A program made the position numbers and the translations under genes. Shown piece by piece: positions 23,188 through 57,845 of a stretch of 64,000 nt of DNA. Source of the DNA: a virus; the IMG/VR virus record IMGVR_UViG_3300032431_000004, positions 1 to 64,000 of that record; one strand, given 5' to 3'. The stretch's first letter is position 1. The number at the start of each line of letters is the position of its first letter. Below the pieces are notes generated by a model. The model was not told the origin of the DNA. It worked only from the letters and a program-made list of their open reading frames with translations, and searched no databases.

Positions 23188-23318
23188 TAAAAACAGGCAG
23201 TGTCATGTTGACTGTCATACTTTTGGCAACACATTCTAAGCCTTGCTGAGCATGAGTTAGAAGCCTGCCGTCGCAGCGTCACTGACATCTAGTAGTTTTA
23301 GGTTTGCTGCCAAAGACT
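23188..23318 (-). repeat. Dispersed inverted-arm element, half copy E1
   Basis: TAAAAACAGGCAGTGTCATGTTGACTGTCATACTTTTGGCAACA...TGCCGTCGCAGCGTCA. Confidence 0.85.
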
Positions 23319-23586
23319 TAAGATGGCAGCGATCGCCCATGTTAGGAAAAAAGGAATGCTTGCAGGCTTCTGGTTTTGCTTCAATAGCTATCTAGACTGG
23401 CATCGGTTAATGGTTCAGGCGTACAACCAGTCGTTTAATCAGTTCAAATTTTTCAGATGCTTAGGGCAAACCGAATGGTTGACTTGAGGCAGCAATCGGC
23501 AGGCAGCGCTGCGCGATCGCCCATAGCTTCATTTTCTTTAGCCGCCTGATTTGGGCGGCTTTCCTTTGGGCGATCGCGTTTTTCGC

Positions 23587-23888
23587 TAAAAGTAGGCAGT
23601 GTCATGTTGACTGTCATACTTTTGGCAACATACTCTAACCCATACTCAGTAAAGCTTAGACACCTGCCGTCGCACTGTCATTGGCATTAAGAGTTTTAGA
23701 TTCTGAGATTAGGATTATCTCTAAGAAGATTAGATATTTAATTCAGTGAATTAATAACTCTGAATCCTCTCCTATTTTGAAATCAGAAAAATCAATGACA
23801 GTGCGACGGCAGGCATCTAAGCCATATATACCAAGGCTTTAAGTGTGTTGCCAATTTGTTGACTGTCACGTAGACACTGCCTGTTTTT
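23587..23888 (-). repeat. Dispersed ~300-bp inverted-arm element, full copy E2
   Basis: AGGCAGTGTC...GACACTGCCT ends, ~95-bp imperfect inverted arms, AT-rich palindromic centre. Confidence 0.9.
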
Positions 23889-23907
23889 TTGGGGATTCTA
23901 GCAGCTG

Positions 23908-24083
23908 AGACTACCCCTAAAAAGACTCAGGTATTTAATCCAATAGATTGAATACCTGAGTCTTCCCTTATTTTGAAATCGTAAAAGTCAATGACGCTGC
24001 GACGGGAGGTGTCTAACCCATACTCAGCAATACTTTAACCCTGTTGCCAAAACAATGACAGTCACGTAGACACTGCCTGTTTT
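23908..24083 (-). repeat. Dispersed element, half copy with central hairpin E3
   Basis: AAGACTCAGGTATTTAATC-5 nt-GATTGAATACCTGAGTCTT, then arm ending GACACTGCCTGTTTT. Confidence 0.85.
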
Positions 24084-24104
24084 CCCAGAATGCCACCGGC
24101 TAAA

Positions 24105-24626
24105 TCAGCTATTCAAATAATCTGCCAAAAGCTGATTCAGTTCATCCCTGACGCCTGGGTACAGATCCCCATTAGCATCAACAGGCAGGAATGGCCGCGC
24201 CGGAACACTTGCCCTCGGTGCCCCAAAGTTATGAATAGCTCCTAGATCGTAGCGACCGACTTTTTGAGCAGTGCCCACTTCAGCAGCATTATTAGTGGCA
24301 CGGGAGTACAGTGAATTGAAAAGCGCCCCAGACCATTGCAGCTTCAGTTTGCCGCCAGCTTTAGGCGCTCCCCTGGTGTTTGTACCTTTTCGCTTCTTAC
24401 GGCTGCTGTAGCCCTCCTTATAGCGTCTGTACCGATCGCTTAATTCTGCCCACGGTTTTCCAGCGGCACCGGGAGCGCGTTGATTTTTGAATGCCCTGAC
24501 AGCTTCAGCCTCAAGGTAATTCGCCCACGCTTTGTAAAGTGGCTGAGGTTTTCTGATTTTGGCGATCGTTTCCGATAGAATGCGATCGCCCGTGAGTTGG
24601 GATACATCAAATTCAAAGGTTGACAT
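24105..24626 (-). CDS. Mu gpG-like virion morphogenesis protein
   Basis: PWAELS, LQWSGALFNSL, AIHNFGAP..VPARPFL. Confidence 0.85.
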   Translation of the reverse strand: MSTFEFDVSQLTGDRILSETIAKIRKPQPLYKAWANYLEAEAVRAFKNQRAPGAAGKPWAELSDRYRRYKEGYSSRKKRKGTNTRGAPKAGGKLKLQWSGALFNSLYSRATNNAAEVGTAQKVGRYDLGAIHNFGAPRASVPARPFLPVDANGDLYPGVRDELNQLLADYLNS

Positions 24627-24633
24627 GCTGACC

Positions 24634-25320
24634 TCAGAGTAGTGGTTCTGATTTTCCTTCCCAATCCCCACAGGTGCTACCGTCTACCCCGGTAGGGTGC
24701 ATGGCACAGACAAGTTTGTTGCCGCCATAGGACTGCCCGTGGTAGTTGGTGCAGCCATCGCAGGCGATCGGCTTAGAAGGATTGAGGGACTGAACGGCTC
24801 GCGTCCACTCATCTCTACGTGCTTGGGGAAATCTTCTAGTACTAAACTCTTCTATTAAGTTCATCATTGATAGATCGTTTGATCTTAATTCGTCAATTGA
24901 TAAAACTGTCAGGGAACGCCCAGCACTACGAGAGTCAGCTTCCCCGATACCTAGAGAAGCGCCAACGATGCCAACCCCATAGACATCGCTGCCCAGTGAT
25001 TCCCCGGCTGCTAGTGCGATCGCCTGCTGCCTTGCGGCGTATTGACTAGACCTTCCAAAAAACCTATCTCTTGCCAGTTCAAACTCAGGGCGGTACTGCC
25101 TGTATATGCGAGGCACCAATCGGAACCCGTCTAGGAACCCGAACCACTCAACTGCCCCTGTGCAAAATAGATCAAAGAATTCGCGGTAGGAAGGCAGTTC
25201 AAGCCGATCGCACGAGATCTGTATGTGACTGTCCACTCTCCTGTTATCCCTGACACCCTTCGATGAAAGCAGCTCAGCTACTATTTCCACAATCGCCATT
25301 TTTTCAACATCTAAGGACAT
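24634..25320 (-). CDS. Accessory protein with C-terminal Cys/His domain
   Basis: ACDGCTNYHG...LVCAMHPTG....CGDW, shared with 30863-31441. Confidence 0.6.
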   Translation of the reverse strand: MSLDVEKMAIVEIVAELLSSKGVRDNRRVDSHIQISCDRLELPSYREFFDLFCTGAVEWFGFLDGFRLVPRIYRQYRPEFELARDRFFGRSSQYAARQQAIALAAGESLGSDVYGVGIVGASLGIGEADSRSAGRSLTVLSIDELRSNDLSMMNLIEEFSTRRFPQARRDEWTRAVQSLNPSKPIACDGCTNYHGQSYGGNKLVCAMHPTGVDGSTCGDWEGKSEPLL

Positions 25321-25366
25321 AGGATTTCCTATAGGGTAGACTTCCCCCTATCCTACCAGCGCGCCA

Positions 25367-26116
25367 TCAGCTTGCAGGCAGGCTGCCATTGGCAAAACCA
25401 GCATTAACCCGATCGCGCTCTTGAGCTATCTGAGCGGCGATAGTAGGCGGCGATCGCGCAATGACTGCCTCAATAATCTCAGCCCGTTTTGCTGCTGATG
25501 TCGTTCCCGGCGCATAATCAAACCCAGGATCAGGCTCGATCGACTGACCTGCTATCTGATCGCCCCGCTTCAGCACGCTCACTTCTAAGTTTTCAGATAA
25601 AAGCGATCGCACTGACAGGCTGATATATCGGCATGAGCAGCCGTAGCCATTTGGCAATGACATGGGCACGTCTTGAGCCGGGAACACCGTACCGTCTAAC
25701 GCTATGTGGGTAGGCCGTGGGTGCGTTGCGCCTCCGTGGATAAGCTGCCGATACGGTTGCAGCCGCACAACGTCAGGGTCAGTCTGCTGTTGCTCCCGGC
25801 CAGCCCCGTACGACATTTTTAGATTGGTGTTGTAAATGACATTGGCTCTCCATGATTTGTTCCCAACCCAGTCGCCAGCTATCTTCTCAAACTCTGCGCG
25901 GAATTCGTCAGGCCGTTGCCCTAAAGCGATCGCCCTATCCAATGCTGCCCTGATGCCAGACAATAAATCGCCCTTGGCACCGGCAACAACAAAAAAGGCG
26001 TCATGCTGATCGTCCGTAATGTCTCGCCAGGTATCGGTGCCAAGGTTAATTTTGTCAAGAAGATAGGCGATCGCTTCAGGGTATGGCTTGGTAGCGTAGG
26101 CCGAATTACTCAGCAT
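25367..26116 (-). CDS. Mu gpF-like minor head protein
   Basis: AFFVVAGA, IYNTNLKMSYGAGR, RPTHIALDG, PNGYGCSC. Confidence 0.9.
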   Translation of the reverse strand: MLSNSAYATKPYPEAIAYLLDKINLGTDTWRDITDDQHDAFFVVAGAKGDLLSGIRAALDRAIALGQRPDEFRAEFEKIAGDWVGNKSWRANVIYNTNLKMSYGAGREQQQTDPDVVRLQPYRQLIHGGATHPRPTHIALDGTVFPAQDVPMSLPNGYGCSCRYISLSVRSLLSENLEVSVLKRGDQIAGQSIEPDPGFDYAPGTTSAAKRAEIIEAVIARSPPTIAAQIAQERDRVNAGFANGSLPAS

Positions 26117-27767
26117 CTTCCTGTGCCTCAAAGATGCCGGCTAGCCGACTGCTAAACATTGCCTCAGCCATAATTTCGGTTAGCGCGTCGCCATCCAAGT
26201 CAGGGAACGCTTGGTCTAATGAGTCCCTGAATTCTCTCAGACTGCCCGCACTATCAAGGCGCGATCGCACTTCTTCTAGCATTCGCTCAAACTGTGGCTC
26301 CGCTTTTTGCCGTAGCCGTTCAGTAAACTTGTCGATGGTATTTGATGGTGCAGAAAATTGAGCTGTTGCCGGCGCGATTTCTGGGGCTGGCCTGTCAGGA
26401 GTAATGGCGATCGCGGTTTCTTCAGGCAACCCGAATACATTGATGAGTACCTGTATGGCATTATCCCTAGGCAACGTATTGTCAGTAAGGAAGTTCAGCA
26501 GCGATTGGGTTCCAATCTGGCCTAGCCCTTGGTAAAGCGGCGCTGGCTGGTCAACAATTGGGCTGCCATCAGCGGCGATCGCAGGGGCTTGGATATCGGT
26601 GAATCCGTCGCCATAAGTAGTTTTTACGTACTCTGCCTTCGGCCTGTATCCCCATGAAAGGATTTCAGTATCCCGTATGGCCTGCGCATTTAGGTCAGGA
26701 CGATCGGTGATTTTTCTCCATACTCTAGGCGGCGCTGCTGATGGATAATTTATCAGCGATAGATTCCTGATCCAACCACGGTTAGCGCTATGGCAAATTA
26801 AGTCAGAATCCGATTGGATAATATCGGTTCTCACTTGGTGCAGCATCTCGCCTTTATCCACCCCGCCTGCACCTTCGAGCGTCATCGTTTGCCCTAAAAT
26901 CAGCTTGGCGATCGCCCTATCCCAATAGCCTAAGAACGCCTGATAGTCGCCAGCGCCCGACCGTGTGGCTTCTAATAGTTCAATCATCATGCCTTCAGGA
27001 ATAACGATTGCGCTGTCGGTATGACATGCCCGTACAGCCTGCAAGAGCACTTGCTTTTCTGCGTCTGTGGCAGCTTTAGAGTGTTTCCCAATGGGCGTAG
27101 GCTGTCCAAACTTTTCAAGGTATACTGCCCAAAATTTGCCGCCGTTTTTCTTGAACCACACGCACCAGTAGATTACGGATGCCAGCCCCCTACCATAGGG
27201 ATCGTCATCGTTATCCCCACCGGTGCGGAAGTACCACCATTTGCCTGGGTAAAGGGTTTCTACATCTTCACCTTCCCAGCTTTCCCAAGTGATCAAACGA
27301 AGGCGGCCATCTTTATCAAACCGGAAGCGGCGTTGTTTCCTGACTTTGATCTTGTCAGGGTAAACGAGATCGCCATCCTTTTCCAATAGAAGTTCAGATA
27401 CCGCATAGCCATAGTGAACGGCATACTGAATTTTTTTATTAACGTCATCCCATGCAATATGGTTCAGGACTTCTTTGAGCCAGTCAGCGGCAACATCATC
27501 TATATCGCTACTTCCCCCAGCTTCTACTTCCCACGGGTGCGCTATTAACGCATTCTGCCGCTGCTCATAGCCAGCTAGAACCTGATGGTCCTCTAGAAGC
27601 TTTTCATAAATTTCTAGACGGTAGCCATTCTCTGCAAGGACGCGATCGTCAGGAAAATCCAGTTCCCCGGCATAGCGGCGCGTCAGATCCTTGCTGCGTG
27701 GCGCTACCTCTACACCTAATGCTGGCGCTGCTGAGATTGATCCATTCGTAGTGGAGGAGGTGAACAT
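26106..27767 (-). CDS. Portal protein (DUF935, Mu gp29-like)
   Basis: PYGRGL, FWAVYLEKFGQPTPIGK, IAKLILGQTMT. Confidence 0.9.
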   Translation of the reverse strand: MFTSSTTNGSISAAPALGVEVAPRSKDLTRRYAGELDFPDDRVLAENGYRLEIYEKLLEDHQVLAGYEQRQNALIAHPWEVEAGGSSDIDDVAADWLKEVLNHIAWDDVNKKIQYAVHYGYAVSELLLEKDGDLVYPDKIKVRKQRRFRFDKDGRLRLITWESWEGEDVETLYPGKWWYFRTGGDNDDDPYGRGLASVIYWCVWFKKNGGKFWAVYLEKFGQPTPIGKHSKAATDAEKQVLLQAVRACHTDSAIVIPEGMMIELLEATRSGAGDYQAFLGYWDRAIAKLILGQTMTLEGAGGVDKGEMLHQVRTDIIQSDSDLICHSANRGWIRNLSLINYPSAAPPRVWRKITDRPDLNAQAIRDTEILSWGYRPKAEYVKTTYGDGFTDIQAPAIAADGSPIVDQPAPLYQGLGQIGTQSLLNFLTDNTLPRDNAIQVLINVFGLPEETAIAITPDRPAPEIAPATAQFSAPSNTIDKFTERLRQKAEPQFERMLEEVRSRLDSAGSLREFRDSLDQAFPDLDGDALTEIMAEAMFSSRLAGIFEAQEDAE

Positions 27768-28709: not shown

Positions 28710-28987
28710 TTTTACTCCGCTGACATAGCGATCGCGCTTTTGATATCAGCATCGCTAAACCCCCGCTTCCGCCCTTCTGCAAATATTCTGGCTTGATATG
28801 CCGCATCGGTCTGGTCACTGAGGTCAACACCAGAGTCTAGGATTTTAGAGATAATTTCGTTCAGGATTTCAGTGGGATTAAGTTTCATCGTTTTTGCCTT
28901 TTGCTGCTTACTTTTATAGTATGTCACAAAAAGAGTGGGAATAGTGGGAAGTTTCATATTGACTGCGTGAAGATGTGCGATCGCGCT

Positions 28988-29287
28988 TAAAAGAGGCAGT
29001 GTCAACATGACTGTCATACTTTTGGCAACACACTCTAAGACTTACTGAGTATGGGCTAGACACCTGCCGTCGCACTGTCATTGGCATTAAGAGTTTTAGG
29101 TTTACTGCCAGAGTTCCCACTAAAAAGATTCAGGCATTTAATCTCAGCAGATTAAATGCCTGAATCTTCTCCTATTCTGAAATCACAAAAGTATGTGACG
29201 CTGTGACAGCAGCCTTCTAAGGTATACGTATCAGGGCTTTAGGTATGTTGCCAAAACAATGACAGTCATGTTGACACAACGCTTTTA
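28988..29287 (-). repeat. Dispersed ~300-bp inverted-arm element, full copy E4
   Basis: Same arms; perfect 20-bp central inverted repeat at 29125-29168. Confidence 0.9.
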
Positions 29288-29289
29288 TC

Positions 29290-30117
29290 CTACCGAGATC
29301 CGGTCAAGCTCCACTGGTGCCGTTGTGCGCCAGTTCCCCTGCGCTCTACCTTGCCTTCCCGTTGCAAAACTTTCAGAACCCTGTAGACATAGGTGTGTGA
29401 AAGTTTTACCTCACCTACGATTTTGTCAGACTGGGACTGTCCTGAGCTGAGAGCGTTCAGCACTTTTCGCTTTGCATCTTCTCCTACGTAGCCAGATTCT
29501 CCAATCGTTCTGGACTTCTTGACTGGCGAAGCGCTACTTGCCGATCGCATTCCCTGCGTTGGCTGAGCCACTGCCTGAGCCAGCATGAGCTTGGCCTTCT
29601 CAAGATCAATCTCTGCCAGTCTGACGTCCAGTTCCTTCAGTCTGACCTGATTGTCAACCAATGGCGGCTGAGGACTGGCTGTGGGCATCCACCCGGTCTT
29701 TGAATGAATAAGAGTTCGCAAACCAACCCCGCTGCTCAGTAAGAGCGATCGCTTTGCTTCCTTGGTTTGATCCTTTGGAGCGGCAAAGCAGGCGTAGTAG
29801 CTAATCATCGCTGAGCAGAAAACGTCAGGCAAGATTTCTGACCCATAAGGATCGGAGCTGTTTACTACTGGCAAAGCAATACCAGCAAAGCTTTTTAGGC
29901 ATTCTGGGAGGTCGTTGCTTATCGGGTCAGAAGATCGGATCTTTTGCACCCAGTAGCTAATCGAAGGCTGAGATTTACCTACAAAACGACCTAGGCCACG
30001 ATGGCTCATACCAGAACGACCGCTCAGCCGCTCGGTATAGTATTCAATCCCATCTTCCACAAACTTGATGAAATCGCCGCTCTCAGGTGCATTAAGCAAT
30101 TGGATTTGTGCAGACAT
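29290..30117 (-). CDS. Antirepressor-like protein with C-terminal winged HTH
   Basis: N-domain GIEYYT...SGMSHRGLGRFVG homologous to 45350-46120; C-terminal SQSDKIVGEVKLSHTYVYRVLKVL..EGKVER. Confidence 0.6.
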   Translation of the reverse strand: MSAQIQLLNAPESGDFIKFVEDGIEYYTERLSGRSGMSHRGLGRFVGKSQPSISYWVQKIRSSDPISNDLPECLKSFAGIALPVVNSSDPYGSEILPDVFCSAMISYYACFAAPKDQTKEAKRSLLLSSGVGLRTLIHSKTGWMPTASPQPPLVDNQVRLKELDVRLAEIDLEKAKLMLAQAVAQPTQGMRSASSASPVKKSRTIGESGYVGEDAKRKVLNALSSGQSQSDKIVGEVKLSHTYVYRVLKVLQREGKVERRGTGAQRHQWSLTGSR

Positions 30118-30178
30118 AGCTAAAACTTGGTAAGTGATGCTACTATCATAGCATGAAGTATTTACTTTGAGGTTACTC

Positions 30179-30319
30179 ATGACTACCAAAAAGCACGCGA
30201 TCGCAGCCTATCTAGACGAAAAGGAAGTTGAGTTCTTATGTGCGATCGCATTGGAGTGGGGATGCAGCATGTCTGCCGCCATCAAAAGGCTAATTAGAGA
30301 GAAGGCGAAGGAGGGTTGA
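30179..30319 (+). CDS. CopG/RHH-like small protein (46 aa, not in ORF track)
   Basis: Own translation MTTKKHAIAAYLDEKEVEFLCAIALEWGCSMSAAIKRLIRE; GAGG RBS. Confidence 0.55.
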   Translation: MTTKKHAIAAYLDEKEVEFLCAIALEWGCSMSAAIKRLIREKAKEG

Positions 30320-30340
30320 ATAGTCAGGCTGACTGACATC

Positions 30341-30455
30341 ATTTCAAAATCACAAAAGTCTGTGACGCTGTGACAACACAACTCTAGTGTATACATACCA
30401 ATACTTTAGGTGTGTTGCCAAACTAATGACAGTCATGTTGACACTGCCTGTTTTT
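30341..30455 (-). repeat. Dispersed element, half copy E5
   Basis: GTGACGCTGTGACA...TGTTGCCAAACTAATGACAGTCATGTTGACACTGCCTGTTTTT. Confidence 0.85.
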
Positions 30456-30460
30456 CACCT

Positions 30461-30500
30461 AAAAACCCCCTCAGAGAAACTGTTCTCTGAGGGGGTTTTT
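30461..30500. terminator. Bidirectional intrinsic terminator
   Basis: AAAAACCCCCTCAGAGAA-loop-TTCTCTGAGGGGGTTTTT. Confidence 0.8.
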
Positions 30501-30862
30501 GCGATCGCCCTTGGCATTAATCCAGTAATCGCGTTTCAGCAATTTCTACCCTTAGCCACTCTGATGGGTTCGGGTAGCTTGGGTGCTCAAGGTGCTTTGC
30601 TTTGCAGGCTCTCAGGTAGCTAGCGATCGCGCTTGTGGCACCTTCCTTCGTTTTGGCGATCGCTTGCCATGTTCCCCGATCAAGAGTGCTGCGCCCAAAC
30701 TGACACTCAGCTGACCATACTGATGTCTCTACCGGGCTAACCAAAGTCCAGTAGGCAAAGCTGTCAGACCAGCCTTCCTGAATCTCTACGGCTTCCTTGG
30801 AGAGCTTGCAGTCTTCCAATTTCGTGCTGACTTCCATTTTTCAGTATCCTTTCTAAATTGTA

Positions 30863-33272: not shown

Positions 33273-33281
33273 ACTATAGAG

Positions 33282-33587
33282 ATGTGTTGGAAGAGAGGGA
33301 CATTTTCAATGAGCAAGGCAATGAGATACCTGAAACAGATTGACAAAAAGCGATCTGCAAGCAGCGCTACGCTATCGCACCTAGGAAGGATGTCACCACC
33401 GACAGAACCCGTCCATGTGGCACCTGTCCTAATATCTACAACTAGATGGGCGGATACTCGTACTGATCCAGCGCAAGATCTCAGGGACGTTTGGCAAACA
33501 ATGAGAGAATATAATGCCGTCGCGGATTATCACAAGGCTCAAAAGATTCTTGAGTATATCGAAAAAAGATCTGCTCGCTCTAAGTAA
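33282..33587 (+). CDS. Hypothetical gene in opposite orientation between terS candidate and terL
   Basis: ORF fills the gap exactly. Confidence 0.4.
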   Translation: MCWKRGTFSMSKAMRYLKQIDKKRSASSATLSHLGRMSPPTEPVHVAPVLISTTRWADTRTDPAQDLRDVWQTMREYNAVADYHKAQKILEYIEKRSARSK

Positions 33588-34407: not shown

Positions 34408-35038
34408 GTTTCGCACTTAAAACACGAAACCAGAATAACCGAAACACGAAAAGATGCCTAAAACACGATCGCCGCCTTCAGTCCATAGGCGGCGATCGTC
34501 AATTTATTCTATGGGCGATCGCTAGTCTTCCTTTTCAAAAGGTTCAACCTCCAAAATATATAGCGGATACTCTAGCCACCCAAAAGATAAGGACGGCTGC
34601 AATGTCACTATAAGAATTTTCAGTGCGTCCCATAGGGTAGCTGGCCTTACCTTGAACTGTGGCTCCGCGCAGACAATGTTGCAAGATTTATCACTTTTCA
34701 CTTTTTCCAAAAGCTCTTCCATTTTTTCTTTTTCAAAGCTGGCGCGATCGCCTTCCCCGTTGCTATGTCTGCTGGCTAGGTATTCTAACTCGTGTTTTTC
34801 TTGGATGGCTCGTACATCCGCCTCGCTCCTCAGTAGTGATGCATAGCCTAGGAAAGTTTGCCTTATTGCTCTGTTAGCGTCCTTTGAGGTTACAAAACTG
34901 TCAGACCAATCAAAAGTACCCATAGGAAATCTCCGCTTTTTTCAATTGTCGCATGCAGCGCTCCGCTATCGCCTATAGGGGAGTAGCACATTTTTTTAGA
35001 TTTGGGCTATTCTATGCGCAACTGTTTGATGAGAAACT

Positions 35039-39419: not shown

Positions 39420-40060
39420 TGTATCTGGAATTCTCGCCACGAGCTGAGTTTGTAGATCGACTTGGCATTACCCGTCGCGTTGCCCTGTGTTCCCTCATAG
39501 GGCAACAAGAGTTCTTTGAGCGCATCACTGAAATAGCCAGCCTGTTAGGTGATGCTGATGCTGGCGAAAGCTGGCAGGAGCTATATGCGAAAAGCGATCG
39601 CTTTCAATTTCTGTCTAAACGATGCCTTGAGCTAAATGGCATCGATCCTGAATGGCTAACTCTAAACGACCTAGAACCCCTACTAATTGGTCAGGGGGAT
39701 GAGCCGGGGTGGCTAGTAACGCTCAACACCCCTAAGCCTGCCGAAGGCAAGGAGAGGGGGCAAAAGGATAGTGCATCACTAGCTGAGATTGTGGCCGCGA
39801 TTGGTTCAATGACTGGCTCAATTGAAGAGGGTTTGAGGCTGGTAGCGACATTGCCAGCCCCGGTGCTATTGGAGATTCTAGAGGCACGGGTAGACCAAAC
39901 GCGATCGCCAGAAGAGAAACAAAAGGCAGACTTTAAGAAACGCAAGCCCGACCTCCTGAAGGCGCTGAAGGAAGTTCAGGAGCGCCACAAAGCTGAATAT
40001 CTAGCAGGAATGAACGATGGTAGCCAACACGACAGCGGTGATCCGGCTCAGCCTCAATAG
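39419..40060 (+). CDS. Tail assembly chaperone
   Basis: Between tube and tape-measure genes. Confidence 0.55.
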   Translation: MYLEFSPRAEFVDRLGITRRVALCSLIGQQEFFERITEIASLLGDADAGESWQELYAKSDRFQFLSKRCLELNGIDPEWLTLNDLEPLLIGQGDEPGWLVTLNTPKPAEGKERGQKDSASLAEIVAAIGSMTGSIEEGLRLVATLPAPVLLEILEARVDQTRSPEEKQKADFKKRKPDLLKALKEVQERHKAEYLAGMNDGSQHDSGDPAQPQ

Positions 40061-45349: not shown

Positions 45350-46120
45350 TCAGGTCAGATCCATTTCCATCTGCCAGCCATCACCATAGAATTCATTGCA
45401 CAATGCCCTGAAATTATCCTTTGACCCTCTAGACAGCCCCATGAAGGTGTCTAGCCTGACCACGTGGGGAGCAAGCCTATCACGGATCTCTTCTGGTAGG
45501 AATTGGTGAATCTTGTGCCTGCGAATCCCATTCTGAGGAGGGTTTAGCTGGTTGATTTTTGCCTTTTCTTCAGCCGTCATCCAACTGTAGACAAACTTCC
45601 AATAGCCACTGCCGCCAAACCAGCCAAAAAACGGACGGCAAAATTTAGGATCAAAGAAGATCTCCCACGGCGCGGCTTCATCCAAGATGCGATCGATTGA
45701 CCGATGCGATTCTGGGGCTGATATGTACCGCTCTGGTAACCATCCCGTCTGAGTTTGGATGTAGGAGGTCAAGCCAATGTTGACAGTCGCAGGCAGAACG
45801 TCTTGAGCCTTTTCCCTTCCCTCAAACGCATAGTGTTGGATGACTGCCGCGCAAAAGTCTGACGGCCAAGCGCTGATTTTCCCACCATTCTTTGCGAACT
45901 TGGTACGCAGGTCTAAAGCTTTGCCTGTAAACGGTTCTAGAGATCTAGATACCTTTTTGGTACGCAGCGATTCTAGGAGTTTTCGGATGCTCCCTTCACT
46001 AACTCCACAGGCTCTAGCTATACCCCGCTGGCTCATGAAGGAAGCCCCGGTAGCTACAACCGTAAAATACTCAACACCATTGATTTCTGATTTCAAAAAC
46101 TCTAAGCTTGTTACAGCCAT
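45350..46120 (-). CDS. P63C-domain protein (antirepressor-like)
   Basis: PWEIFFDPKF...INQLNPP..GIRRHKIHQFL; N-domain shared with 29290-30117. Confidence 0.75.
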   Translation of the reverse strand: MAVTSLEFLKSEINGVEYFTVVATGASFMSQRGIARACGVSEGSIRKLLESLRTKKVSRSLEPFTGKALDLRTKFAKNGGKISAWPSDFCAAVIQHYAFEGREKAQDVLPATVNIGLTSYIQTQTGWLPERYISAPESHRSIDRILDEAAPWEIFFDPKFCRPFFGWFGGSGYWKFVYSWMTAEEKAKINQLNPPQNGIRRHKIHQFLPEEIRDRLAPHVVRLDTFMGLSRGSKDNFRALCNEFYGDGWQMEMDLT

Positions 46121-46259
46121 CGGTCTACCTCTACTAGATTGTGGTCAGCGATCGCACCAAGGTAACAACTCAGTGCGATCGCGCTTCTCTAATTATATGC
46201 TGAAATCTCCCTCTGGCATTACCGCTAGGGGGATTTCTACTTTAAAGCCAATTACCCTC

Positions 46260-46563
46260 TAAAAACAGGCAGTGTCTACATGACAGTCAACAAATTGGCA
46301 ACACACTTAAAGCCTTGGTATATATAGGTTAGATGCCTGCCGTCGCACCGTCACAGACTTTTCTGATTTCAAAATAGAACAGGATTTAGAGTTATTAATT
46401 CAGTAAAATAAATATCTAATCCTCTTAGAGGTAATCCTTGGCAGCAAACCTAAAACTACTAGATGCCAGTGACGCTGCGACGGGAGGCATCAAGCCTGTG
46501 CTGAGTATGGGTTTAACCCTGTTGCCAAATCCATGACAGTCAACATGACACTGCCCCCTTTTA
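46260..46563 (+). repeat. Dispersed ~300-bp inverted-arm element, full copy E6
   Basis: TAAAAACAGGCAGTGTCTACATGACAGTCA...TGACAGTCAACATGACACTGCC; orientation reversed relative to E2 and E4. Confidence 0.9.
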
Positions 46564-46652
46564 GCCAAAATGCGATCTGCAAACAGCGCTTCGCGATCGC
46601 CCATAGCCTCCAACTGGAATATAGTGGAAAGCGATCGCGCTTTTGAGGCAAC

Positions 46653-47159
46653 ATGGCACGCTGGCAAGTCAGGATTAGGCAACCCGCATCGGCCACCCCG
46701 GTCATCCCTGAACTGGTGTTGGACACTTTTGGGGAAGATGGCTATAACCGATCGCAGATTCAGCAGGTGAACCTCAGAGACTTCACGGTTGGCGGATCAG
46801 CCATCATCAGCGGTGCCACGTATCCCTATCGCTACACATGGGCGATCGCGTGTCAGGTTTCAGAAGATGACGCGCTGCAATTGGAGGCGCTGGTAATTTG
46901 GCAAGACAAGCGATATGCCGCAGGGTTAGACGGGCGACTGAGGTTGATAGATGAGGTAGAGCTTTTGCCACCAGAAGCCGCGCCACATTCCAAAACGCTC
47001 ATTGCTCCTGAAACGAATTCCTATGGGTTTCTCCGTGGGTTTGGCAGCTTCAATGTGAAAATAAGCCTACCTGATAGCCACAAGACTCATGTGGGGAGAA
47101 GTGCTGAGGATGGCCTACCAGTGAAGCTGCTTCAGTTCAGTGCGGTAGAGTTGCCCTGA
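46653..47159 (+). CDS. Putative distal-tail-like protein
   Basis: First + strand gene of this size after the tape-measure gene; beta-rich. Confidence 0.45.
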   Translation: MARWQVRIRQPASATPVIPELVLDTFGEDGYNRSQIQQVNLRDFTVGGSAIISGATYPYRYTWAIACQVSEDDALQLEALVIWQDKRYAAGLDGRLRLIDEVELLPPEAAPHSKTLIAPETNSYGFLRGFGSFNVKISLPDSHKTHVGRSAEDGLPVKLLQFSAVELP

Positions 47160-47199: not shown

Positions 47200-47826
47200 A
47201 TGCTGAGTAGTCCTGAAAATATTCAAACGACTGAGGAATGGATCGCTCAACTCTCAGAGGCTACCGGGAAGAGCTTTGAGATAGTGGGAGATATTCTCTT
47301 AAGGACGATGCGGACGTTTTACAAAGAAATTGGAGAAACCTATTTACTAGCTGATCAGCTAGTTGCGGTGATCAGCTCAACCAATACCTCAATCTTAGGA
47401 TTGGGTGAGTCCTTAGCTTTCGTAGGGCCGATTGCTGCCCTTATGAACCAGCCACTAGATGACGTTCTAATCCTGCTAGGTCTGCTGGGAGATGCTGGCA
47501 TTGAGGGGAGTATGGCGGGCATAGGCTTGATGGCTGTCTTAAATCGACTTCAAGTTACGTCGGCAGCGGCAGAACCAGAATCCATTAAGAGAACTTTTGA
47601 TATCGTCAGCGCTTCTGCCAAGAATAGCGACGGATCAATGAGATCCGTTTTAGAAATACTTCCAGAGCTTCGGGGAAGCATTGGCAAGCTATGGCAAGCT
47701 GAGCAAGGCATTTTGATGGAGGCATTGTTTGGGGTAGAAGGCGCACCAGTTTTTCAGGCATTGTTCAATACAACTCCAGAACATGTCGCGATCGTTACCA
47801 GTCGAGTCAAGAGCGCTGGCAGGTAG
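47200..47826 (+). CDS. Stand-alone copy of the tape-measure core domain
   Basis: Collinear with TMP nt ~40989-41574 (EATGKSFEIVGDI vs EATGENLEVVGDI; NSDGSMRSVLEILPE vs NTDGSMKSVLEILPE). Confidence 0.85.
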   Translation: MLSSPENIQTTEEWIAQLSEATGKSFEIVGDILLRTMRTFYKEIGETYLLADQLVAVISSTNTSILGLGESLAFVGPIAALMNQPLDDVLILLGLLGDAGIEGSMAGIGLMAVLNRLQVTSAAAEPESIKRTFDIVSASAKNSDGSMRSVLEILPELRGSIGKLWQAEQGILMEALFGVEGAPVFQALFNTTPEHVAIVTSRVKSAGR

Positions 47827-47893
47827 CCGCACCTGAACACCGAAGGAGAGTAGTGGGTTATTCTGAATGGAAATTTAACGAGGTTTCTTACGT

Positions 47894-48289: not shown

Positions 48290-48529
48290 ACCGATGGGTA
48301 TCGAAAACACAAGCAAGCCGACAGGTGAAAACGATCGCATTTGGAGAGGCCACATCGTTAGCCTAGGCAAGGAATATCAGCGCTGTGAGTCTTCAGGCGC
48401 AAGGGATATTTGGTATTGGCGGTTCGTTTTAGACGTTGCCACTTGGGCACTTGACCAATGCAATAAGCGATTGAGCGCACCGGTACTCAGAACATGGCAT
48501 TATCAAAAAGAATTGAAACGCGATCGCAC

Positions 48530-49069
48530 ATGAAATATTTTCTTGACACCGAATTTATTGAAGACGGCACCACTATTGACTTGATCAGCATTGGTCTGGT
48601 GTGTGAGGACGGGCGGGAATTCTACGCCGAAAACTCTAGCGCCGACCTTTCAAAGGCTGGGGAATGGGTGGAAGCGAATGTGTTGCCGTTGCTTTGGTCT
48701 AGAAGCGCAGACAAGGAAAAAGCAAGCCTGTGGAGCCGTGATGGCGTGGCTGGCGGATTGCTGACCCACAAAGAGATAGGCTCGGCAATTCGGCTGTTCA
48801 TACCGGAAGATGACAAGCCTGAGTTTTGGGCTTATTACGCAGACTATGACTGGGTAGCCTTTTGCCAGCTATTCGGAACAATGATGGATTTGCCAGATGG
48901 ATTTCCTATGTACTGTCGCGATATCAAGCAATGGTGCGACCAGCTTGGCAGCCCTGATCTGCCTAAGCAGGATGGGACAGAACACAATGCTCTTGAGGAT
49001 GCCCAGTGGACATTAGAGGCTTGGGAATTCTTGAACGCAATTGACCTAACCCCTAATGTCACTCCTTAA
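48530..49069 (+). CDS. DEDDh 3'-5' exoribonuclease (Rv2179c-like)
   Basis: FLDTEFIEDG.TIDLISIG, YYADYDWV, HNALEDA. Confidence 0.88.
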   Translation: MKYFLDTEFIEDGTTIDLISIGLVCEDGREFYAENSSADLSKAGEWVEANVLPLLWSRSADKEKASLWSRDGVAGGLLTHKEIGSAIRLFIPEDDKPEFWAYYADYDWVAFCQLFGTMMDLPDGFPMYCRDIKQWCDQLGSPDLPKQDGTEHNALEDAQWTLEAWEFLNAIDLTPNVTP

Positions 49070-51113
49070 CCAGCTTGCCCGTAACTGCACAGTATCGATC
49101 GCCTATGCCAACGGCACGGGTAGCCTCAGTGTGACTGCTCAGCTAATCGATCTGGTGGTTAGCAACTCCCACTTAGATGAGAGCGGGCTGATAAAGGTCA
49201 CGGGGAAGCTGACGCTAGCAGGCCGGAGGGTGGTCGGATTCAGTGAAGAGCTAGACCCACGCATAAACCGTAGTCGGTGGCTGCGCGGCAATCGAATCAC
49301 TGTGCAGATAGCTGATAGTACCGGGGCGCTCGTTCCACATCCTAGAGGGGCGCTGCGTATCCTCAAGACACCGCCGCCGCCATCGCTTGACGGTGGCAAC
49401 TTAGAAATCGAAGTAGGTTGCGATCTTACCTACTTTGATAGCCCTGGGTTGCCAGAGAGCAATATTGACGCATCGCCAACCTTCCCTGCTGTCTTGACAC
49501 GGGCGATCGCAATCAATTACCTAGCTGACAAGATTGGCGCGCCATTACTGATTGATAGCATCCCTGAATATCCGCTGGCTTATCTACCGTCTGACCTTGA
49601 CGGCAGCCGCATCGCTCAAATGGGCGGGCTAGCATTTGTAGCCGGTTATGTGCTGTGGATGGATGGCGATCGCGCCTTGAGGGCAACGCGGATAGATGTA
49701 GAGCGATCGCCTGACTATACCTACTCAGCAATATTAGACGCCAGCAGTTTTGAATTTCGGCCTGCCGACGAAACCACGGCAGAAAACGTAACGGTAGTTG
49801 CCCCGATGGCAACGCGAACAATATTTGAGGTAGATCCCCCTCGCACCGACACAACCGAAGAGGGCAACTATAAAGAAACTGTCACGACTTCGATCAATGG
49901 CGACGTCTATTTTGTGGAAAGCAGGAAACAGCTAAAAGATTTATTCCCTACTATTTACCCGAATAATCGGGCAATGGCGATCGCCTCTACCACAACCAGG
50001 TCAGAATCGTATTCAACTGAGATGAGGTTAGACAGTGAAGAGGAGATGACGCGATCGCCCCAGGGCGTAGTACTGCCAACATTATTTCCCGGCAGCACTA
50101 CGCTGATTGATTCTGAACGAACTGTTACAAATTACGAATATCAGAACGGGGCAACCTACAAAATCTCAGTGTTGAGCTATCGCCCTGCTGGGGTAGCATT
50201 CCCATTTGATCCGCTCTACCCGGTGCCGACTGCATTGGTGTTGGTAGAAACGGATGTAAAACGATGGGATGTTTTCCGAGATGGGTATCAGCTGACGCAA
50301 ACTAAATTAGATTTGACTACTCGCAAATCAGAAGCCACTACCGATTACAGCTCAACCGAATACACGCCGCCAGCGCCAAAGTACAAAAAGGCAGATTATG
50401 ACCAAGAAGAAACTCCTACTGCGGGCGGCGCTGAATTTGAGCAGGATGGCGGCACGGATAGCGGGCTAGGGCGATCGCGTGTCTACAGCGTGACAGGCTC
50501 CATCAGCAGCCCTCAGCAGGCCGTAGAGCTAGCCAAAACGTTAGGACAAATCCTCTATGCCAGAGGATACCCCGTGAGTTGGTCAACTGCCATCCCTGAC
50601 ACGATGCTCTCCAGCTATAGCCCTCTGAGGGTGTGGAAGTGGATAGATCCTAACTGCACATCGCGGTATATGGCAGATGGTGACGCATTTGCGATCGCGC
50701 CTGATGAGGCTACATTTGCCGCTGATGGCTTGTTCCTAGGCACTGAGAATACACCGGGGGTTGTTGATCCACCCTATCGGTTCAAGCTAAAAGGGACGCT
50801 GGCGATCGGCTCGTCTTCAGTATTTGACCTGTCAGTGGTAGAGGATGCGTTGCTACTGGGCACCGTGGCGATCGGCTCGTCTTCAGTATTTGATCTGTCG
50901 GTTGTAACAGCTGCCGGGATGTCTGGCGTATTGGCGATCGGCAGCTCTAGCACGTTTGACCTGTCGGTTACGGAACCATCTGTACTGATTGGGTCAATGG
51001 CTTCTGAGACGACAGCAACCTTTGATTTATCTGCTACGCAACCACCTCCGCTACTTGGAGTGATGGCTTCTGAAACGACAGCGACGTTTGACCTGTCTGC
51101 TACGCAACCTTAA
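49056..51113 (+). CDS. Tail hub / minor tail protein with C-terminal repeats
   Basis: Synteny; G.LAIGSSS.FDLSV x3 and MASETTATFDLSATQP x2. Confidence 0.6.
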   Translation: MSLLNQLARNCTVSIAYANGTGSLSVTAQLIDLVVSNSHLDESGLIKVTGKLTLAGRRVVGFSEELDPRINRSRWLRGNRITVQIADSTGALVPHPRGALRILKTPPPPSLDGGNLEIEVGCDLTYFDSPGLPESNIDASPTFPAVLTRAIAINYLADKIGAPLLIDSIPEYPLAYLPSDLDGSRIAQMGGLAFVAGYVLWMDGDRALRATRIDVERSPDYTYSAILDASSFEFRPADETTAENVTVVAPMATRTIFEVDPPRTDTTEEGNYKETVTTSINGDVYFVESRKQLKDLFPTIYPNNRAMAIASTTTRSESYSTEMRLDSEEEMTRSPQGVVLPTLFPGSTTLIDSERTVTNYEYQNGATYKISVLSYRPAGVAFPFDPLYPVPTALVLVETDVKRWDVFRDGYQLTQTKLDLTTRKSEATTDYSSTEYTPPAPKYKKADYDQEETPTAGGAEFEQDGGTDSGLGRSRVYSVTGSISSPQQAVELAKTLGQILYARGYPVSWSTAIPDTMLSSYSPLRVWKWIDPNCTSRYMADGDAFAIAPDEATFAADGLFLGTENTPGVVDPPYRFKLKGTLAIGSSSVFDLSVVEDALLLGTVAIGSSSVFDLSVVTAAGMSGVLAIGSSSTFDLSVTEPSVLIGSMASETTATFDLSATQPPPLLGVMASETTATFDLSATQP

Positions 51114-51130
51114 AGAGGAGTATTGACACA

Positions 51131-51985: not shown

Positions 51986-51994
51986 CCGGAGATA

Positions 51995-54477: not shown

Positions 54478-54917
54478 GAAATCGCCCTATCCGCTGGCTT
54501 GACATGCGATCGCACTTGGCATTCCGGCATCGCTAATACCCACTTTCAGCCGATACTCTTCAATTTGCGCTGGCGTGGCTTCACCCAATATGTCTAGTCG
54601 GTTCATGCCGGGGCTGGCAACAATTCCAAATGGGTTGCCGCCTTTGGTGAACTTTGGCGATCGTGCTAGCACGTATACAGAGCAATGGTAGACGGTGCCT
54701 CTCTTGAGCGGTTCAGGGCTTAATGTGATTGCCCGATAGTCATAGTTGTTCCGATCTACCACATATAGCCATTGCCGATAATTGGCAATCTTTAACTTTT
54801 GACCCGACCCGGCAACTGTCAGTAAGGGCATATTGCTTTTGATCGATAGCTACTCCGGCTCAAGAATAGCCTAGGTTGGGGCTGGTAGCGATATTGGGCG
54901 CTGATGGGCGATCGCTT

Positions 54918-56294
54918 TTAGACGTGCCCGACTAGCACTGCATTGACACCTGTAAGCGCTTCCCACCTTTCCAGGATCACGGTGCAATAGAGGTCGCTCA
55001 GCTCAAAGCCGTAGACGGTGCGATCGCCTTCCATCTGTTGAGCTGCGATTAAGCTCATGCCGCTGCCTAGGAATGGGTCAAAGATTAGATCGTCGGGCTT
55101 GCCATATTTCTCAAAGCACCATTCAGCAAGCGCGATCGGCTTTTGGGTTGGGTGAACTCTTTTTTGTCCATGCTCTGAAGCCTTTAAGCAGCCATTCCAC
55201 ATGTGACGAAAGATGCGTACAGACGTGGGCTGGTTTGTCCATGCTAATTCAGCATCGGCAAAGTCCCCAGAGTTTTCTTTGTCCCAAATTAGCCAGCAAC
55301 TAGAGTCTGGCAGTGCGCTTGAAAAGTGATTAGCTCCCCACCAAAACTGGTTAGGCATTGAGCGAAGGAGGTTGAAGGCGGCGATCGCGGTTTTGGTTGA
55401 ATCGTCACCAATGACAGCTGGACGAGGGATGCTTTGGATCGGCTTCTTCGAGAGAGAAGAAGCCGATCCAAAGGGCTTTGCTCTGTCCTTCATTGGGTCA
55501 AACTTCATTCCGTACGGAGGATCAGCCCACACCATCCCCACCGCCCGATCGCCCAGCAACTTCTTAACATTCCCCTCATCAGTCGAATCACCGCAGCAGA
55601 TCCGGTGCCGCCCCAATTGCCAGATCTCACCCAACTTTACGCGACTGGCGATCGCGCCTTCGTCTGCTGCATCTAGCAGGTCTGCGATCGCCTCCTCATC
55701 CTCTTCCTGTGGGATGCCTTCCCCCTCTGCCTCTAACTCTTCATACCTCAGCAGGGCATCTAAGTAATCGCCATCAAAACCAATCGGCAAAGAATCCTCA
55801 TCAGCCAGCCCTTCTAATTGCTTAGAGAAGCCAGAGTCAAACATCTTGGCGATATCGTGGGCGCTGAAATCGCTACCCGCCATGGTCAGAATGTTGTGAG
55901 AAAAGCCAAACGCTTCAGCTTGCTTCTCTGACAATGCATCAACTCCAAACTTCACAGGTACAACCCATTCGCCATCAGCCTTGAGTGTGCCGATCCCTTT
56001 GGGTGGATCTTCACCCTGCTGTCTCATCAACGCTAGTCGGAATAGGAGAGCCTTAGTTCGTCCGTTACCGTAGACAAACCCACCTTCACCGCCATTTAGG
56101 TTGCTATCCCACTTAGCACAATCGGCATACCCATAGGACGCGATTGCTTCATCCAACATCTGAAGGTCATGCAACTTTGCATTATCCTTCCAAAGCTGCA
56201 AGTCGAGATCGAACGCTGGCAAGGGCACGTAGCGGATGTGTAGAACATCGCCATCAACGGCTGAGTGGTTAACTGAAGATTCTAGTATCGACAT
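54918..56294 (-). CDS. N4/N6 DNA methyltransferase (beta class) with ParB-like N-terminus
   Basis: WKDNAKLHD, GNGR; CGDST, ADPPYG, HPTQKP, DPFLGSG. Confidence 0.9.
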   Translation of the reverse strand: MSILESSVNHSAVDGDVLHIRYVPLPAFDLDLQLWKDNAKLHDLQMLDEAIASYGYADCAKWDSNLNGGEGGFVYGNGRTKALLFRLALMRQQGEDPPKGIGTLKADGEWVVPVKFGVDALSEKQAEAFGFSHNILTMAGSDFSAHDIAKMFDSGFSKQLEGLADEDSLPIGFDGDYLDALLRYEELEAEGEGIPQEEDEEAIADLLDAADEGAIASRVKLGEIWQLGRHRICCGDSTDEGNVKKLLGDRAVGMVWADPPYGMKFDPMKDRAKPFGSASSLSKKPIQSIPRPAVIGDDSTKTAIAAFNLLRSMPNQFWWGANHFSSALPDSSCWLIWDKENSGDFADAELAWTNQPTSVRIFRHMWNGCLKASEHGQKRVHPTQKPIALAEWCFEKYGKPDDLIFDPFLGSGMSLIAAQQMEGDRTVYGFELSDLYCTVILERWEALTGVNAVLVGHV

Positions 56295-56373
56295 CTTGGG
56301 GAAATATTTTAGCTAAAGTTTAGCGCGGTTGCCTATACGTTTGGGCTAAACTTTATGCAAACCCTACAACCAT

Positions 56374-56790
56374 ATGGAACCTACTGATATTGACTCAATC
56401 GCGCTTCGAGTTGATGCTCTAGAAAAATCGCAAGATGCGGCAGCCCAAATCGACACACAGCAGCAGGCACTAATTCAAAGTCTCTCTGAGGTGATTGGTC
56501 AGCTAGCTGCTGAAAAGCAGGCCGCAAAAGCGGAAGCTAGTCTTGGTCAGAAGCTAATGGGATCTTTGATTTTTACCATTATATTACTGGGATTTAGCAT
56601 AGATCCCAGTACCACACGCATCAAAAGTGAAGGGGCTGAAGTTGGGCTGCGAGAAGTCCCTTGGGGCGTTTCAGCAGGCTGCTTACTAGCGATCGCAGTA
56701 GTAGTTTTGAACCAAGAACAAACGGATAGAGGGATTGCGGTACTGGCAAGCATCAGAGGTCTAGCGGTCATCCACAAAGGCAACGGCTGA
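56374..56790 (+). CDS. Holin-like membrane protein
   Basis: Two hydrophobic segments; directly upstream of endolysin. Confidence 0.5.
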   Translation: MEPTDIDSIALRVDALEKSQDAAAQIDTQQQALIQSLSEVIGQLAAEKQAAKAEASLGQKLMGSLIFTIILLGFSIDPSTTRIKSEGAEVGLREVPWGVSAGCLLAIAVVVLNQEQTDRGIAVLASIRGLAVIHKGNG

Positions 56791-56806
56791 TTCAGGAAAA
56801 AGGCAA

Positions 56807-57553
56807 ATGGCAACACTCCACATCATAAAGTCAACCTGGTTAAAACAGGCCGCTGTTCAGTCATCAGGGCTGTCAGACGGCAATAAATACGCCGCTAGCG
56901 CAGGTCAGACCTTTGAGCTGGCCAGCTTTGAGTCAATTGAGGATCTGTCAAAAAATGATGGGGACAGCCATGTCAAAATTTTCTTAGCTGAGCCAGTTAA
57001 AGAAAAAAGGACATGGTATGTTTTCCAGCGTGACGTTGCCATCATGGATGGCGATCGCGTTTTGTTCCCGTCGCCTGAAGACGATGAACGTACCGCCAAC
57101 CGTAAGCTGGCGATCGCGCATGACTATTCAGGAATTGTCTTGTGGCTACCCGGTGGGCGAAAGGTTCACTCTGACGAGCCGATTATTAAGTCTGGCAATT
57201 TCTCATGGGGTGAAGCTAGCCACGGCGGCGAGCGCATCCCTAAAGACAAGCAGACGGTAGAACGTATAGTCAAGCTGGCGATCGCGCTTCAGGACGCTAG
57301 GGCGGCTATCGGTAGACCGTTCCGAATTACCTCATGGTATAGACCAGAGCCGTTCAACTCACGGGTGGGCGGGGCATCGCGATCGCAGCATCTAAATGGC
57401 GGTGCCGTAGACATTGTGGTTGAGGGCTACAGTGGCGCTCAACTGGCAAGGAAGATCAAACCATTCTGGCCTGGTGGCGTTGGGATCTATCCCGGTAACC
57501 GTAAACATATTCTGCACTTGGATATCGGAACTAAACGATCTTGGGGAGTCTAA
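56807..57553 (+). CDS. Endolysin, peptidase M15A
   Basis: ITSWYRP..N.RVGGASRSQHL.G.AVDI...LHLD. Confidence 0.9.
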   Translation: MATLHIIKSTWLKQAAVQSSGLSDGNKYAASAGQTFELASFESIEDLSKNDGDSHVKIFLAEPVKEKRTWYVFQRDVAIMDGDRVLFPSPEDDERTANRKLAIAHDYSGIVLWLPGGRKVHSDEPIIKSGNFSWGEASHGGERIPKDKQTVERIVKLAIALQDARAAIGRPFRITSWYRPEPFNSRVGGASRSQHLNGGAVDIVVEGYSGAQLARKIKPFWPGGVGIYPGNRKHILHLDIGTKRSWGV

Positions 57554-57845
57554 AAACAGGCAGTGTCTACGTGACTGACATGCTTTTGGCAACACACTTA
57601 AAGCCTTGGTATATATGGACTAGACACCTGCCGTCGCACTGTCATTGGTTTTTCTGATTTCAAAATAGGAGAGGATTCAGACTTATTAATTCACTGAATT
57701 AAATATTCAGATCTCTTAAGGGTGATCCTAGGCAGCAAACCTAAAACTACTAGATGCCAATGACGGTGCGACGACAGGTGTCTAACGCATACTCAGTACA
57801 GGTTTGAGTATGTTGCCAAAAGTATGTCAGTCAACATGACACTGC
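57551..57845 (+). repeat. Dispersed ~300-bp inverted-arm element, full copy E7
   Basis: Begins at the endolysin TAA: TAAAAACAGGCAGTGTCTACGTGAC...GTCAACATGACACTGC. Confidence 0.9.

Follow-up and report, generated by a model that had tools for sequence, protein, structure and literature searches.

Copies and anatomy of the element

The first 64,000 nucleotides of the IMG/VR virus record IMGVR_UViG_3300032431_000004 (G000; 74,823 bp, 50% GC), hereafter called the window, carry a dispersed family of elements of about 300 bp, in which two long arms face each other across an AT-rich centre. Copies were identified by repeat detection, by BLAST and with an nhmmer model of the arm. The seven in-window copies that had been listed in an earlier, sequence-only reading of the window were all recovered by these methods, and a relaxed arm motif matched 11 times in the window, against 0.00 matches expected from 100 shuffles. 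In the whole record the arm model detected 17 significant arms (all E ≤ 3e-22), which make up seven full copies and three partial copies.

The leftmost copies are nested. Partial copy h1 (23188-23318, + strand) consists of a left arm (23189-23288; nhmmer E = 6e-29) and the first ~30 nt of a centre. It was 80-85% identical to other arms by BLAST and forms an inverted repeat with 23982-24083 in partial copy h3 (23908-24083, + strand), which is made up of a centre with a 19-bp palindrome (23922-23964) and a right arm (23985-24083). h1 and h3 are the two halves of one split element, with h1 on its outer left side, and they jointly bracket the full copy E2 (23584-23890, + strand; left arm 23588-23687, right arm 23790-23888, centre 24% GC) and a 265-bp cassette (23319-23583, + strand). 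This cassette holds a 54-aa open reading frame (ORF; 23323-23487) and, before E2, a + strand terminator-like hairpin (23540-23560); h3 begins directly after the right arm of E2. The next full copy is E4 (28984-29290, + strand; left arm 28989-29087, right arm 29190-29286), to the left of which a promoter-like site and a small - strand ORF were found. Its apical palindrome of ~20 bp (29125-29168) is perfect, and its centre folds with z = -10.6. The cassette that follows (29290-30340, - strand) encodes a 299-aa protein with a weak C-terminal winged-helix match, and it is bracketed, in direct orientation, by the right arm of E4 and that of partial copy h5 (30341-30455, + strand), a lone right arm (30356-30454; nhmmer E = 2.8e-22).

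The remaining two full copies of the window lie in the opposite orientation (- strand). E6 (46258-46566) has its right-arm type at 46261-46360 and its left-arm type at 46463-46562, and E7 (57548-57852) has its arms at 57552-57650 and 57754-57852. Outside the window, three further full copies, E8 (68833-69140), E9 (70829-71128) and E10 (72685-72992), are all in + orientation.

A 23-base box pattern was used to find relatives, and it retrieved one other IMG/VR contig and 37 metagenome contigs, which are thus selected by motif. The alignment of all arms that had been proposed as a check was then run on 58 arms from 29 full elements, seven from the record and 22 from metagenome contigs of the same lineage. 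In the arm-centred register, 32 of the 93 positions were identical in all 58 arms and the other 61 varied. The invariant boxes follow in the order GC.GTGTC, five free nucleotides, GAC.G.CA, five free nucleotides, TTGGCAACA, a variable mini-palindrome of ~25 nt, TTAGA, four free nucleotides and TG..GTC.CA-NN-GTCA, and the outer end of each arm is closed by an A-run. The arms are ~95-100 bp long, as described before, and the two arms of one element are 67-84% alike. They face each other across a centre of ~110 bp with 24-29% GC. Of the seven 80-bp windows richest in AT in the genome, which has a mean of 50 ± 6% GC, six were element centres.

The blocks between the boxes occur as few discrete alleles, and these are combined almost freely. 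The suggestion that sub-blocks are shuffled between copies was borne out, because all four combinations of the two commonest alleles were present in 105 of 210 block pairs. The variable box was physically inverted on the left in 3 of 29 copies and on the right in 8 of 29, and one N5 allele, ATGTT, is the reverse complement of another, AACAT. These allele combinations and individually flipped boxes also support the view that the shuffling is ongoing.

We compared the arms of the same element with arms from different loci. The likeness between own arms at the 61 variable positions was 0.568, and across loci it was 0.556 (permutation p = 0.27), whereas left arms were more like other left arms (0.72 at variable sites). 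The mismatches between arms comprised 490 non-wobble, 128 top-strand wobble and 146 bottom-strand wobble pairs, without strand bias; since most are non-wobble, neither strand looks like a selected RNA. Where a box is flipped, former pairing partners become direct repeats, and copies of this kind persist.

No consistent promoter was found within the element. Two candidates, TTGACT-16-CATACT, which had been flagged as a promoter, and the hand-read TTGGCA-18-TATATA, were both rejected because their -10 boxes are not conserved. Small ORFs that start in the left arm (MTVNMTLP...) were rejected as genes, as their downstream parts are unrelated.

Genomic position and cassette exchange

The position of each copy relative to transcription was examined. 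E8, E9 and E10 each lie ~15-25 bp downstream of a strong canonical terminator and ~40-90 bp upstream of a sigma70-like promoter, such as TTGACT-17-TATATT. The genes on either side of E6 are divergent, with a cargo gene on the - strand (45350-46120) and another gene on the + strand (46653-47159); contigs L044 and L055 have different cargo on the cargo side, and its transcription likewise leads away from the element. Next to h5 lies a strong bidirectional terminator-like hairpin (~30460-30510). E4 and E7 each follow directly after a stop codon, and the ORF of the 299-aa protein ends 3 nt from E4. The overlap of a stop codon with an element start was confirmed at E7, where the terminal CTAAAA of the element supplies the stop codon of the endolysin ORF (56807-57553). 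Because E8-E10 occupy terminator-promoter gaps and E6 separates divergent genes, at least four of the seven full copies are probably untranscribed spacers.

It had further been proposed that the copies are co-oriented with transcription. The part of this claim that opposes E2 and E4 to E6 and E7 was upheld, since E2 and E4 are + among - strand genes and E7 is - among + strand genes. However, E8-E10 share the orientation of E2 and lie among + strand genes, and E6, which points the same way as its - strand neighbour, lies between divergent genes. The earlier polarity rule reflects the fact that only four full copies had been seen.

The lack of co-evolution between the arms and the untranscribed positions together point to double-stranded DNA as the functional form of the element.

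The flanks of the 37 contigs were 85-93% identical to the genome and the elements were at the same loci; orthologous elements were conserved as much as the flanking coding DNA (84-93%). Gene content between the copies varied, in support of the idea of recombination sites for accessory genes. Contig L031 lacks the E4-h5 cassette, the E8-E10 cargo varies, and contig L033 has an E7-like copy at its E10 locus. In L031 a single element replaces E4, a 1.17-kb cassette and h5, and the switch from E4-like to h5-like sequence lies inside the right arm. Additional cargo of UViG_3300027850_000025 is enclosed by extra partial left arms together with repeated E4-flank sequence. Among relatives (L036, L043, L045, L047 and L063), h1 and E2 were separated by either ~270-300 bp or ~690 bp.

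The E8-E10 array is built of units that consist of a terminator, an element, a promoter and cargo. A ribbon-helix-helix (RHH) gene closes units 1 and 2. The two RHH-like paralogues (~110 aa, 60% identical, with a C-terminal motif) are encoded at 69915-70250 and 72294-72620 of the record (L007:2583-2918 and L004:1102-1428), and they belong to the conserved right-hand flank used in cargo exchange. Two units instead of three were found in L029 and L030. The cargo is different in nearly every relative, and that of L053, L057, L059, L060 and L062 is unrelated. The E10-locus element of L033 was 90.5% identical to E7 and only ~77-83% identical to E10, which indicates gene conversion between element loci. 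In these sequence comparisons, recombination is the sole activity of the element with direct evidence.

The cargo beside the elements includes antirepressor-like, T5orf172 plus SH3, DUF3560, STIV-B116-like, winged-helix and TnpB/Cas12f-like proteins. The protein with T5orf172 (GIY-YIG-related) and SH3 domains (L049:827-1567, L033:1955-2695) adjoins the E7-like copy at the E10 locus. At the E6 locus of L044 (Ga0105049_10095886, 556-2815), a 51-aa RHH-like ORF is paired with an ORF that is cut off by the contig end after at least 611 aa and contains a Cas12f1-like TNB domain (TnpB/Cas12f-like, PF07282, E = 1.8e-7). This pair has inverted repeats of its own (124 nt; 603-726 and 2687-2810, 82%) on both sides, and its counterpart at E6 in the window is a 256-aa helix-turn-helix protein. 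Two winged-helix proteins, one of 296 aa by E10 and the 299-aa protein by E4, were considered as paralogues, and this was rejected on comparison.

Interpretation of the element

We tentatively read the element as a DNA-level boundary module that docks a protein, melts easily and serves as a junction for cassette exchange; this possibility is the one preferred here. A sequence-specific reader would be needed, because the invariant boxes exceed what homology-driven recombination requires. The boxes would dock such a protein symmetrically on both sides of a melt-prone and cruciform-prone AT-rich core. The module itself lies between transcription units, preceded by a terminator and followed by a promoter. 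As a repeated sequence it would act as portable homology, and homologous recombination and gene conversion between copies would insert, delete and swap cassettes of accessory genes. Exchange between copies would at the same time keep reshuffling the blocks of the module itself. We infer the binding and the identity of the protein, and likewise that melting, cruciform cutting or replication initiation is what makes the sites recombinogenic.

Several points weigh against the boundary-module reading. No binding protein is tied to the boxes. Many indels between relatives lie away from any element (e.g., 34482-34977, 47211-47850 and 48528-49033), so the elements are not the sole points of exchange, and the association of breakpoints with elements is biased, as all 37 relative contigs had been chosen by motif. 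Homology alone does not call for invariant boxes, so that the linker role may be a side effect of another, primary function, for example that of an origin. In addition, E2, E4 and E7 abut the 3' ends of genes and no separate terminator was seen for E4 and E7, where a role as RNA could still be played.

As a cassette-exchange junction, the module is similar in effect to promoter-early stem-loop (PeSL) or bacterial interspersed mosaic element (BIME) repeats, and among known systems the PeSLs of T4-type phages come closest in this respect. A PeSL combines a promoter with a terminator stem-loop in one small unit (PMC2839356, PMC4122927). Both families are dispersed, conserved intergenic phage repeats that border non-essential ORFan genes (PMC2839356, PMC4122927). 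Recombination between PeSL copies explains insertions, deletions and replacements between close relatives, a feature also found here, and the repeated unit of E8-E10 likewise holds a terminator and a sigma70-like promoter. In contrast to PeSLs, the promoter and the terminator lie outside the present 300-bp palindromic module, which has no convincing promoter or canonical terminator of its own. There is also no sequence similarity, and this phage, with its Mu gp29-like portal, is not T4-like.

Repetitive extragenic palindromes (REPs) and BIMEs (PMC2817692, PMC3333891) are, like the present family, extragenic mosaic palindromic units of alternating orientation with few motif types, found at the 3' ends of genes or between operons and lacking target duplications. 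BIMEs are thought to bind proteins, and REPs are 20-40 bp long, occur in hundreds of chromosomal copies and are associated with a RAYT (Y1) transposase (PMC2817692, PMC3333891). In contrast, the unit here is 300 bp long, with 7-10 copies in one phage lineage only, and no RAYT was found. Integron attC sites and the Vibrio VCRs are also imperfect palindromes, which end promoter-less or single-gene cassettes in tandem arrays. However, no IntI integrase and no R''/L''-L'/R' core (GTTRRRY/RYYYAAC) at the ends were found here, the orientation of the elements to the cassettes is inconstant, and the cassettes have their own promoters.

Among dispersed intergenic repeats that promote modular shuffling, it is mainly the PeSLs of T4-type phages that have been characterised. 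The present family is a much larger and differently built example, in a freshwater and microbial-mat cyanophage lineage with a Mu-like head module, and it stands out by its size, multi-box arms, flipped boxes and AT-rich core. Strict box conservation without co-evolution of the arms, flipped boxes and the most meltable core of the genome make it useful for study, as a tractable case for how phages make and keep 'plug-in' sites for accessory genes and whether such sites double as origins. The family would also offer defined landing sites for the engineering of cyanophages, and a lineage marker in metagenomes, where the repeats currently break assemblies.

A different proposal, which we consider rather doubtful, is that each element is a replication origin or a loading site for a phage initiator, where the winged helix of the primase-helicase would bind the arms and melt the AT-rich core. 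The element would then be a pair of initiator-site arrays opposed around a DNA-unwinding centre, and recombination at the copies would follow from fork initiation. The origins oriL/oriR of SPP1 and oriS/oriL of herpes simplex virus are grouped with the iteron-type origins of self-loading helicases. In the origins of Staphylococcus aureus pathogenicity islands (SaPIs), 6-12 iterons are split around an AT-rich centre, with at least two per side in opposed orientation, and a winged helix forms the C-terminal domain of the Rep protein (PMC9371898). The anatomy of the element resembles such origins (PMC9371898), in that short conserved opposed sites, with boxes in mirror order, flank an AT-rich centre, although the likeness is one of anatomy only. 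The centres are the most AT-rich DNA of the genome, and no DNA polymerase was found among the ORFs searched against families. The genome also encodes an initiator-like primase-helicase, a DUF3987 protein of 915 aa whose relatives are almost all cyanobacterial or on cyanobacterial plasmids ('Primase 2' proteins). Its C-terminal domain was predicted to be a winged helix (pLDDT 85-89 over model residues ~52-124), and the top PDB matches of this domain are all winged-helix DNA binders, including Orc1/Cdc6. The position in untranscribed gaps and the indifference to orientation fit an origin as well.

However, these fold matches are weak (best Foldseek E = 9e-3) and uninformative about the DNA bound. 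Seven full copies, of which three lie within 4 kb, together with the nested cluster within 900 bp, exceed by far the origins described for any phage, some copies stand in tandem, and neither the initiator gene nor any other replication gene has a full copy next to it. The boxes are not simple iterons either, since the arms are ~100 bp long with five different boxes in place of one repeated iteron, and left and right arms are distinct types.

Two marginal clusters of arm-like boxes, kept as candidates only, lie in the primase-helicase gene. The first (6048-6133, + strand) matched model positions 14-100 with nhmmer E = 0.098, and the second (7668-7701, - strand) gave E = 0.24. Of all sub-threshold hits that the arm model gave in the genome, these two scored best, but individually neither is significant. 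The segments 6048-6081 and 7668-7701 form a 34-nt inverted repeat (85%) inside the gene, and this inverted pair, which counts in favour of the origin proposal, may mark an origin inside the initiator gene. The two inverted copies read TGTCAAC(G/A)TGACTGGCAGCA.. and resemble arm boxes 1-3 minus approximately one helical turn.

The stricter claim that every copy is a working, portable origin, at which the winged-helix-bearing primase-helicase would be loaded, appears unlikely from the present analysis. If it were true, a 75-kb phage would fire from at least seven origins, a cassette between two copies could loop out by recombination as a self-replicating, packageable mini-circle, and gene mobility would be coupled directly to replication.

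The sequence-only reading had also considered a non-autonomous mobile element. The corresponding proposal, that of a MITE-, PATE- or REPIN-like element (MITE, miniature inverted-repeat transposable element) which an enzyme leaving no target duplication would move in trans, is in our view distinctly unlikely. The element is a discrete unit with long inverted arms and sub-terminal repeated boxes, and its sharp, identical ends agree with mobility, as homology between copies stops at the A-run or T-run in at least five unrelated flank contexts. In four DNA runs, contigs broke within the repeat and gave no informative joint, and the depth of the element was several-fold above that of its flanks. 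The L033 copy that is closer to E7 than to E10, and the TnpB/Cas12f-like gene beside the E6 copy of one relative, could be taken as signs of mobility. However, exchange between loci is equally explained by gene conversion, and the TnpB-like gene of L044 has its own, different inverted repeats.

The flanks of the seven full and three half copies were read for target-site duplications, and, as noted earlier, none was present outside the A-run/T-run. Scans of ~90 ORFs with PHROGs and Pfam gave no transposase, again as had been reported, and no integrase or RAYT, and no Y1/HUH protein or tyrosine recombinase was among the ORFs scanned in the apparently near-complete genome. Every relative examined carried an element at each locus; the metagenome contigs showed no empty site, and neither did the 37 relative contigs, where motif selection makes this a weak result. 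The 23-base box pattern had no match in 185,579 prokaryote genomes (GTDB), among which the true host genome may be unsampled. A second, independent box pattern gave two GTDB matches there, in a Pseudomonadota and a Sphingomonadales metagenome-assembled genome, and both were rejected as chance matches without BLAST similarity to the element. There is thus no true copy in these prokaryote genomes, which counts against an ordinary MITE with many host copies and an insertion sequence sharing its ends. The classical form of a mobile element is disfavoured by the lack of a target-site duplication, a transposase and a host copy. MITEs have target-site duplications and transposase-derived ends and are abundant in the host chromosome. 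The present element shares with Correia/NEMIS-type MITEs, which are intergenic, 100-300 bp long and located at gene borders, the long inverted ends, but none of those three MITE features was found.

More distant phages with related portals lacked the element as well. No match was obtained by distant blastn against INPHARED or with the arm model on 80 loci (1.18 Mb) found by a portal profile, and single-query searches with the neck protein or the portal retrieved no relative from IMG/VR. The three records G001-G003, which hold endolysin relatives (L064-L066), lacked the element; G001 and G002, taken whole, had no HIP1 sites either and were not true relatives. The family appears to be confined to one phage lineage from freshwater and microbial-mat metagenomes.

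A long-hairpin RNA had been another candidate, and we regard it as very unlikely that the element acts as a rod-like hairpin of ~300 nt that ends transcription both ways, protects the 3' ends of mRNAs or is cut by RNase III. The single-strand folds are very stable, with -130 kcal/mol (z = -13.5) for E2 and -116 kcal/mol (z = -9.6) for E6. This stability follows from the mirror arrangement of the invariant boxes. A GC-rich 9-bp basal stem lies between the conserved A-run and T-run, as in bidirectional terminators, and at E4 and E7, which come after stop codons, no other terminator is close by. However, pairs in RNAalifold were almost all invariant and few covaried beyond the invariant columns, own arms are no more complementary than foreign arms, and the flipped boxes destroy the pairing. 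The predominance of non-wobble mismatches without strand bias, the orientation relative to genes, which is inconsistent, and the probable lack of transcription of four of the seven copies, E6 and the three in the terminator-promoter gaps, also argue against an RNA. A perfect apical hairpin was confined to the E4 locus (z about -10 to -12), where substitutions are mirrored between orthologues in favour of an RNA; E8-E10 and several other copies had no apical hairpin. Covariation of the apical hairpin as a general feature was thus rejected, being present only in the E4/h3 type. Rfam 15 had no match in the whole window at gathering thresholds; at E ≤ 5, E6 matched only generic long-hairpin models of miRNA precursors at noise level, and a SymR match (E = 0.87) lies outside E6.

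The least probable proposal is a structural DNA site, namely a centromere-like partition site, a site for gyrase or a nucleoid protein, or a genome-wide operator for an RHH or winged-helix regulator of a cassette. Phage N15 has dispersed centromere sites. The spread of the copies over the genome is like that of these sites and of the gyrase/IHF sites of BIMEs (PMC2817692), the symmetric multi-box arms surround a bendable AT-rich centre, and DNA-binding proteins (the RHH paralogues, MarR-like and TrmB-like winged helices and HTH_36) lie beside several copies, but neither ParA nor ParB was found, nothing ties these proteins to the boxes, and the adjoining regulators are cargo that varies between relatives, whereas the boxes are invariant.

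Genome content and minor repeats

Family searches of the ORFs identified a Dda-like helicase, the primase-helicase, a UvrD-like helicase, several DNA methyltransferases, a RuvC-like resolvase (13821-14324), a large terminase, the portal, a head protease and an endolysin. A 1537-aa ORF (40017-44630) is known as an ORF only, outside the family-library searches. The portal (26106-27767 of the window) is Mu gp29-like (DUF935), and the adjoining minor head protein is also Mu-like; these head genes coexist with a primase-helicase replication module, and there is no MuA-type transposase. The search for tRNA and tmRNA genes found none.

A cyanobacterial host fits the record, because nearly every relative of the primase-helicase comes from a cyanobacterium or a cyanobacterial plasmid. 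The HIP1 octamer GCGATCGC, a signature of cyanobacterial genomes, occurs at 213 sites in 74.8 kb (~2.8/kb), and the HIP1-rich record also encodes at least five DNA methyltransferases. In contig L030 (8590-9270), 233 bp connect position 73962 of the record with position 472. Because both record ends are joined in this contig, the record is probably near-complete and circularly permuted, despite its 'linear' label and a CheckV completeness of 78%. In comparison with 73962-74823 and 1-1153 of the record, L030 lacks a 211-aa ORF (73972-74607).

Two sets of tandem repeats were seen in coding DNA of the window. One (21958-22389) is a 195-nt unit present twice (81%) in a 304-aa ORF (21957-22871), and the other (50786-51109) is a 66-nt unit repeated several times in a 685-aa ORF (49056-51113). 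A second small repeat family is a HIP1-containing quasi-palindrome, GCGATC.GCA..CAGCGCT.CGCGATCGC, with copies at 554-592, 15177-15203, 23492-23530, 33350-33388 and 46572-46610 of the window. The left arms of E2 and E6 each have one of these copies immediately on their outer side, and its orientation to the element is opposite in the two cases.

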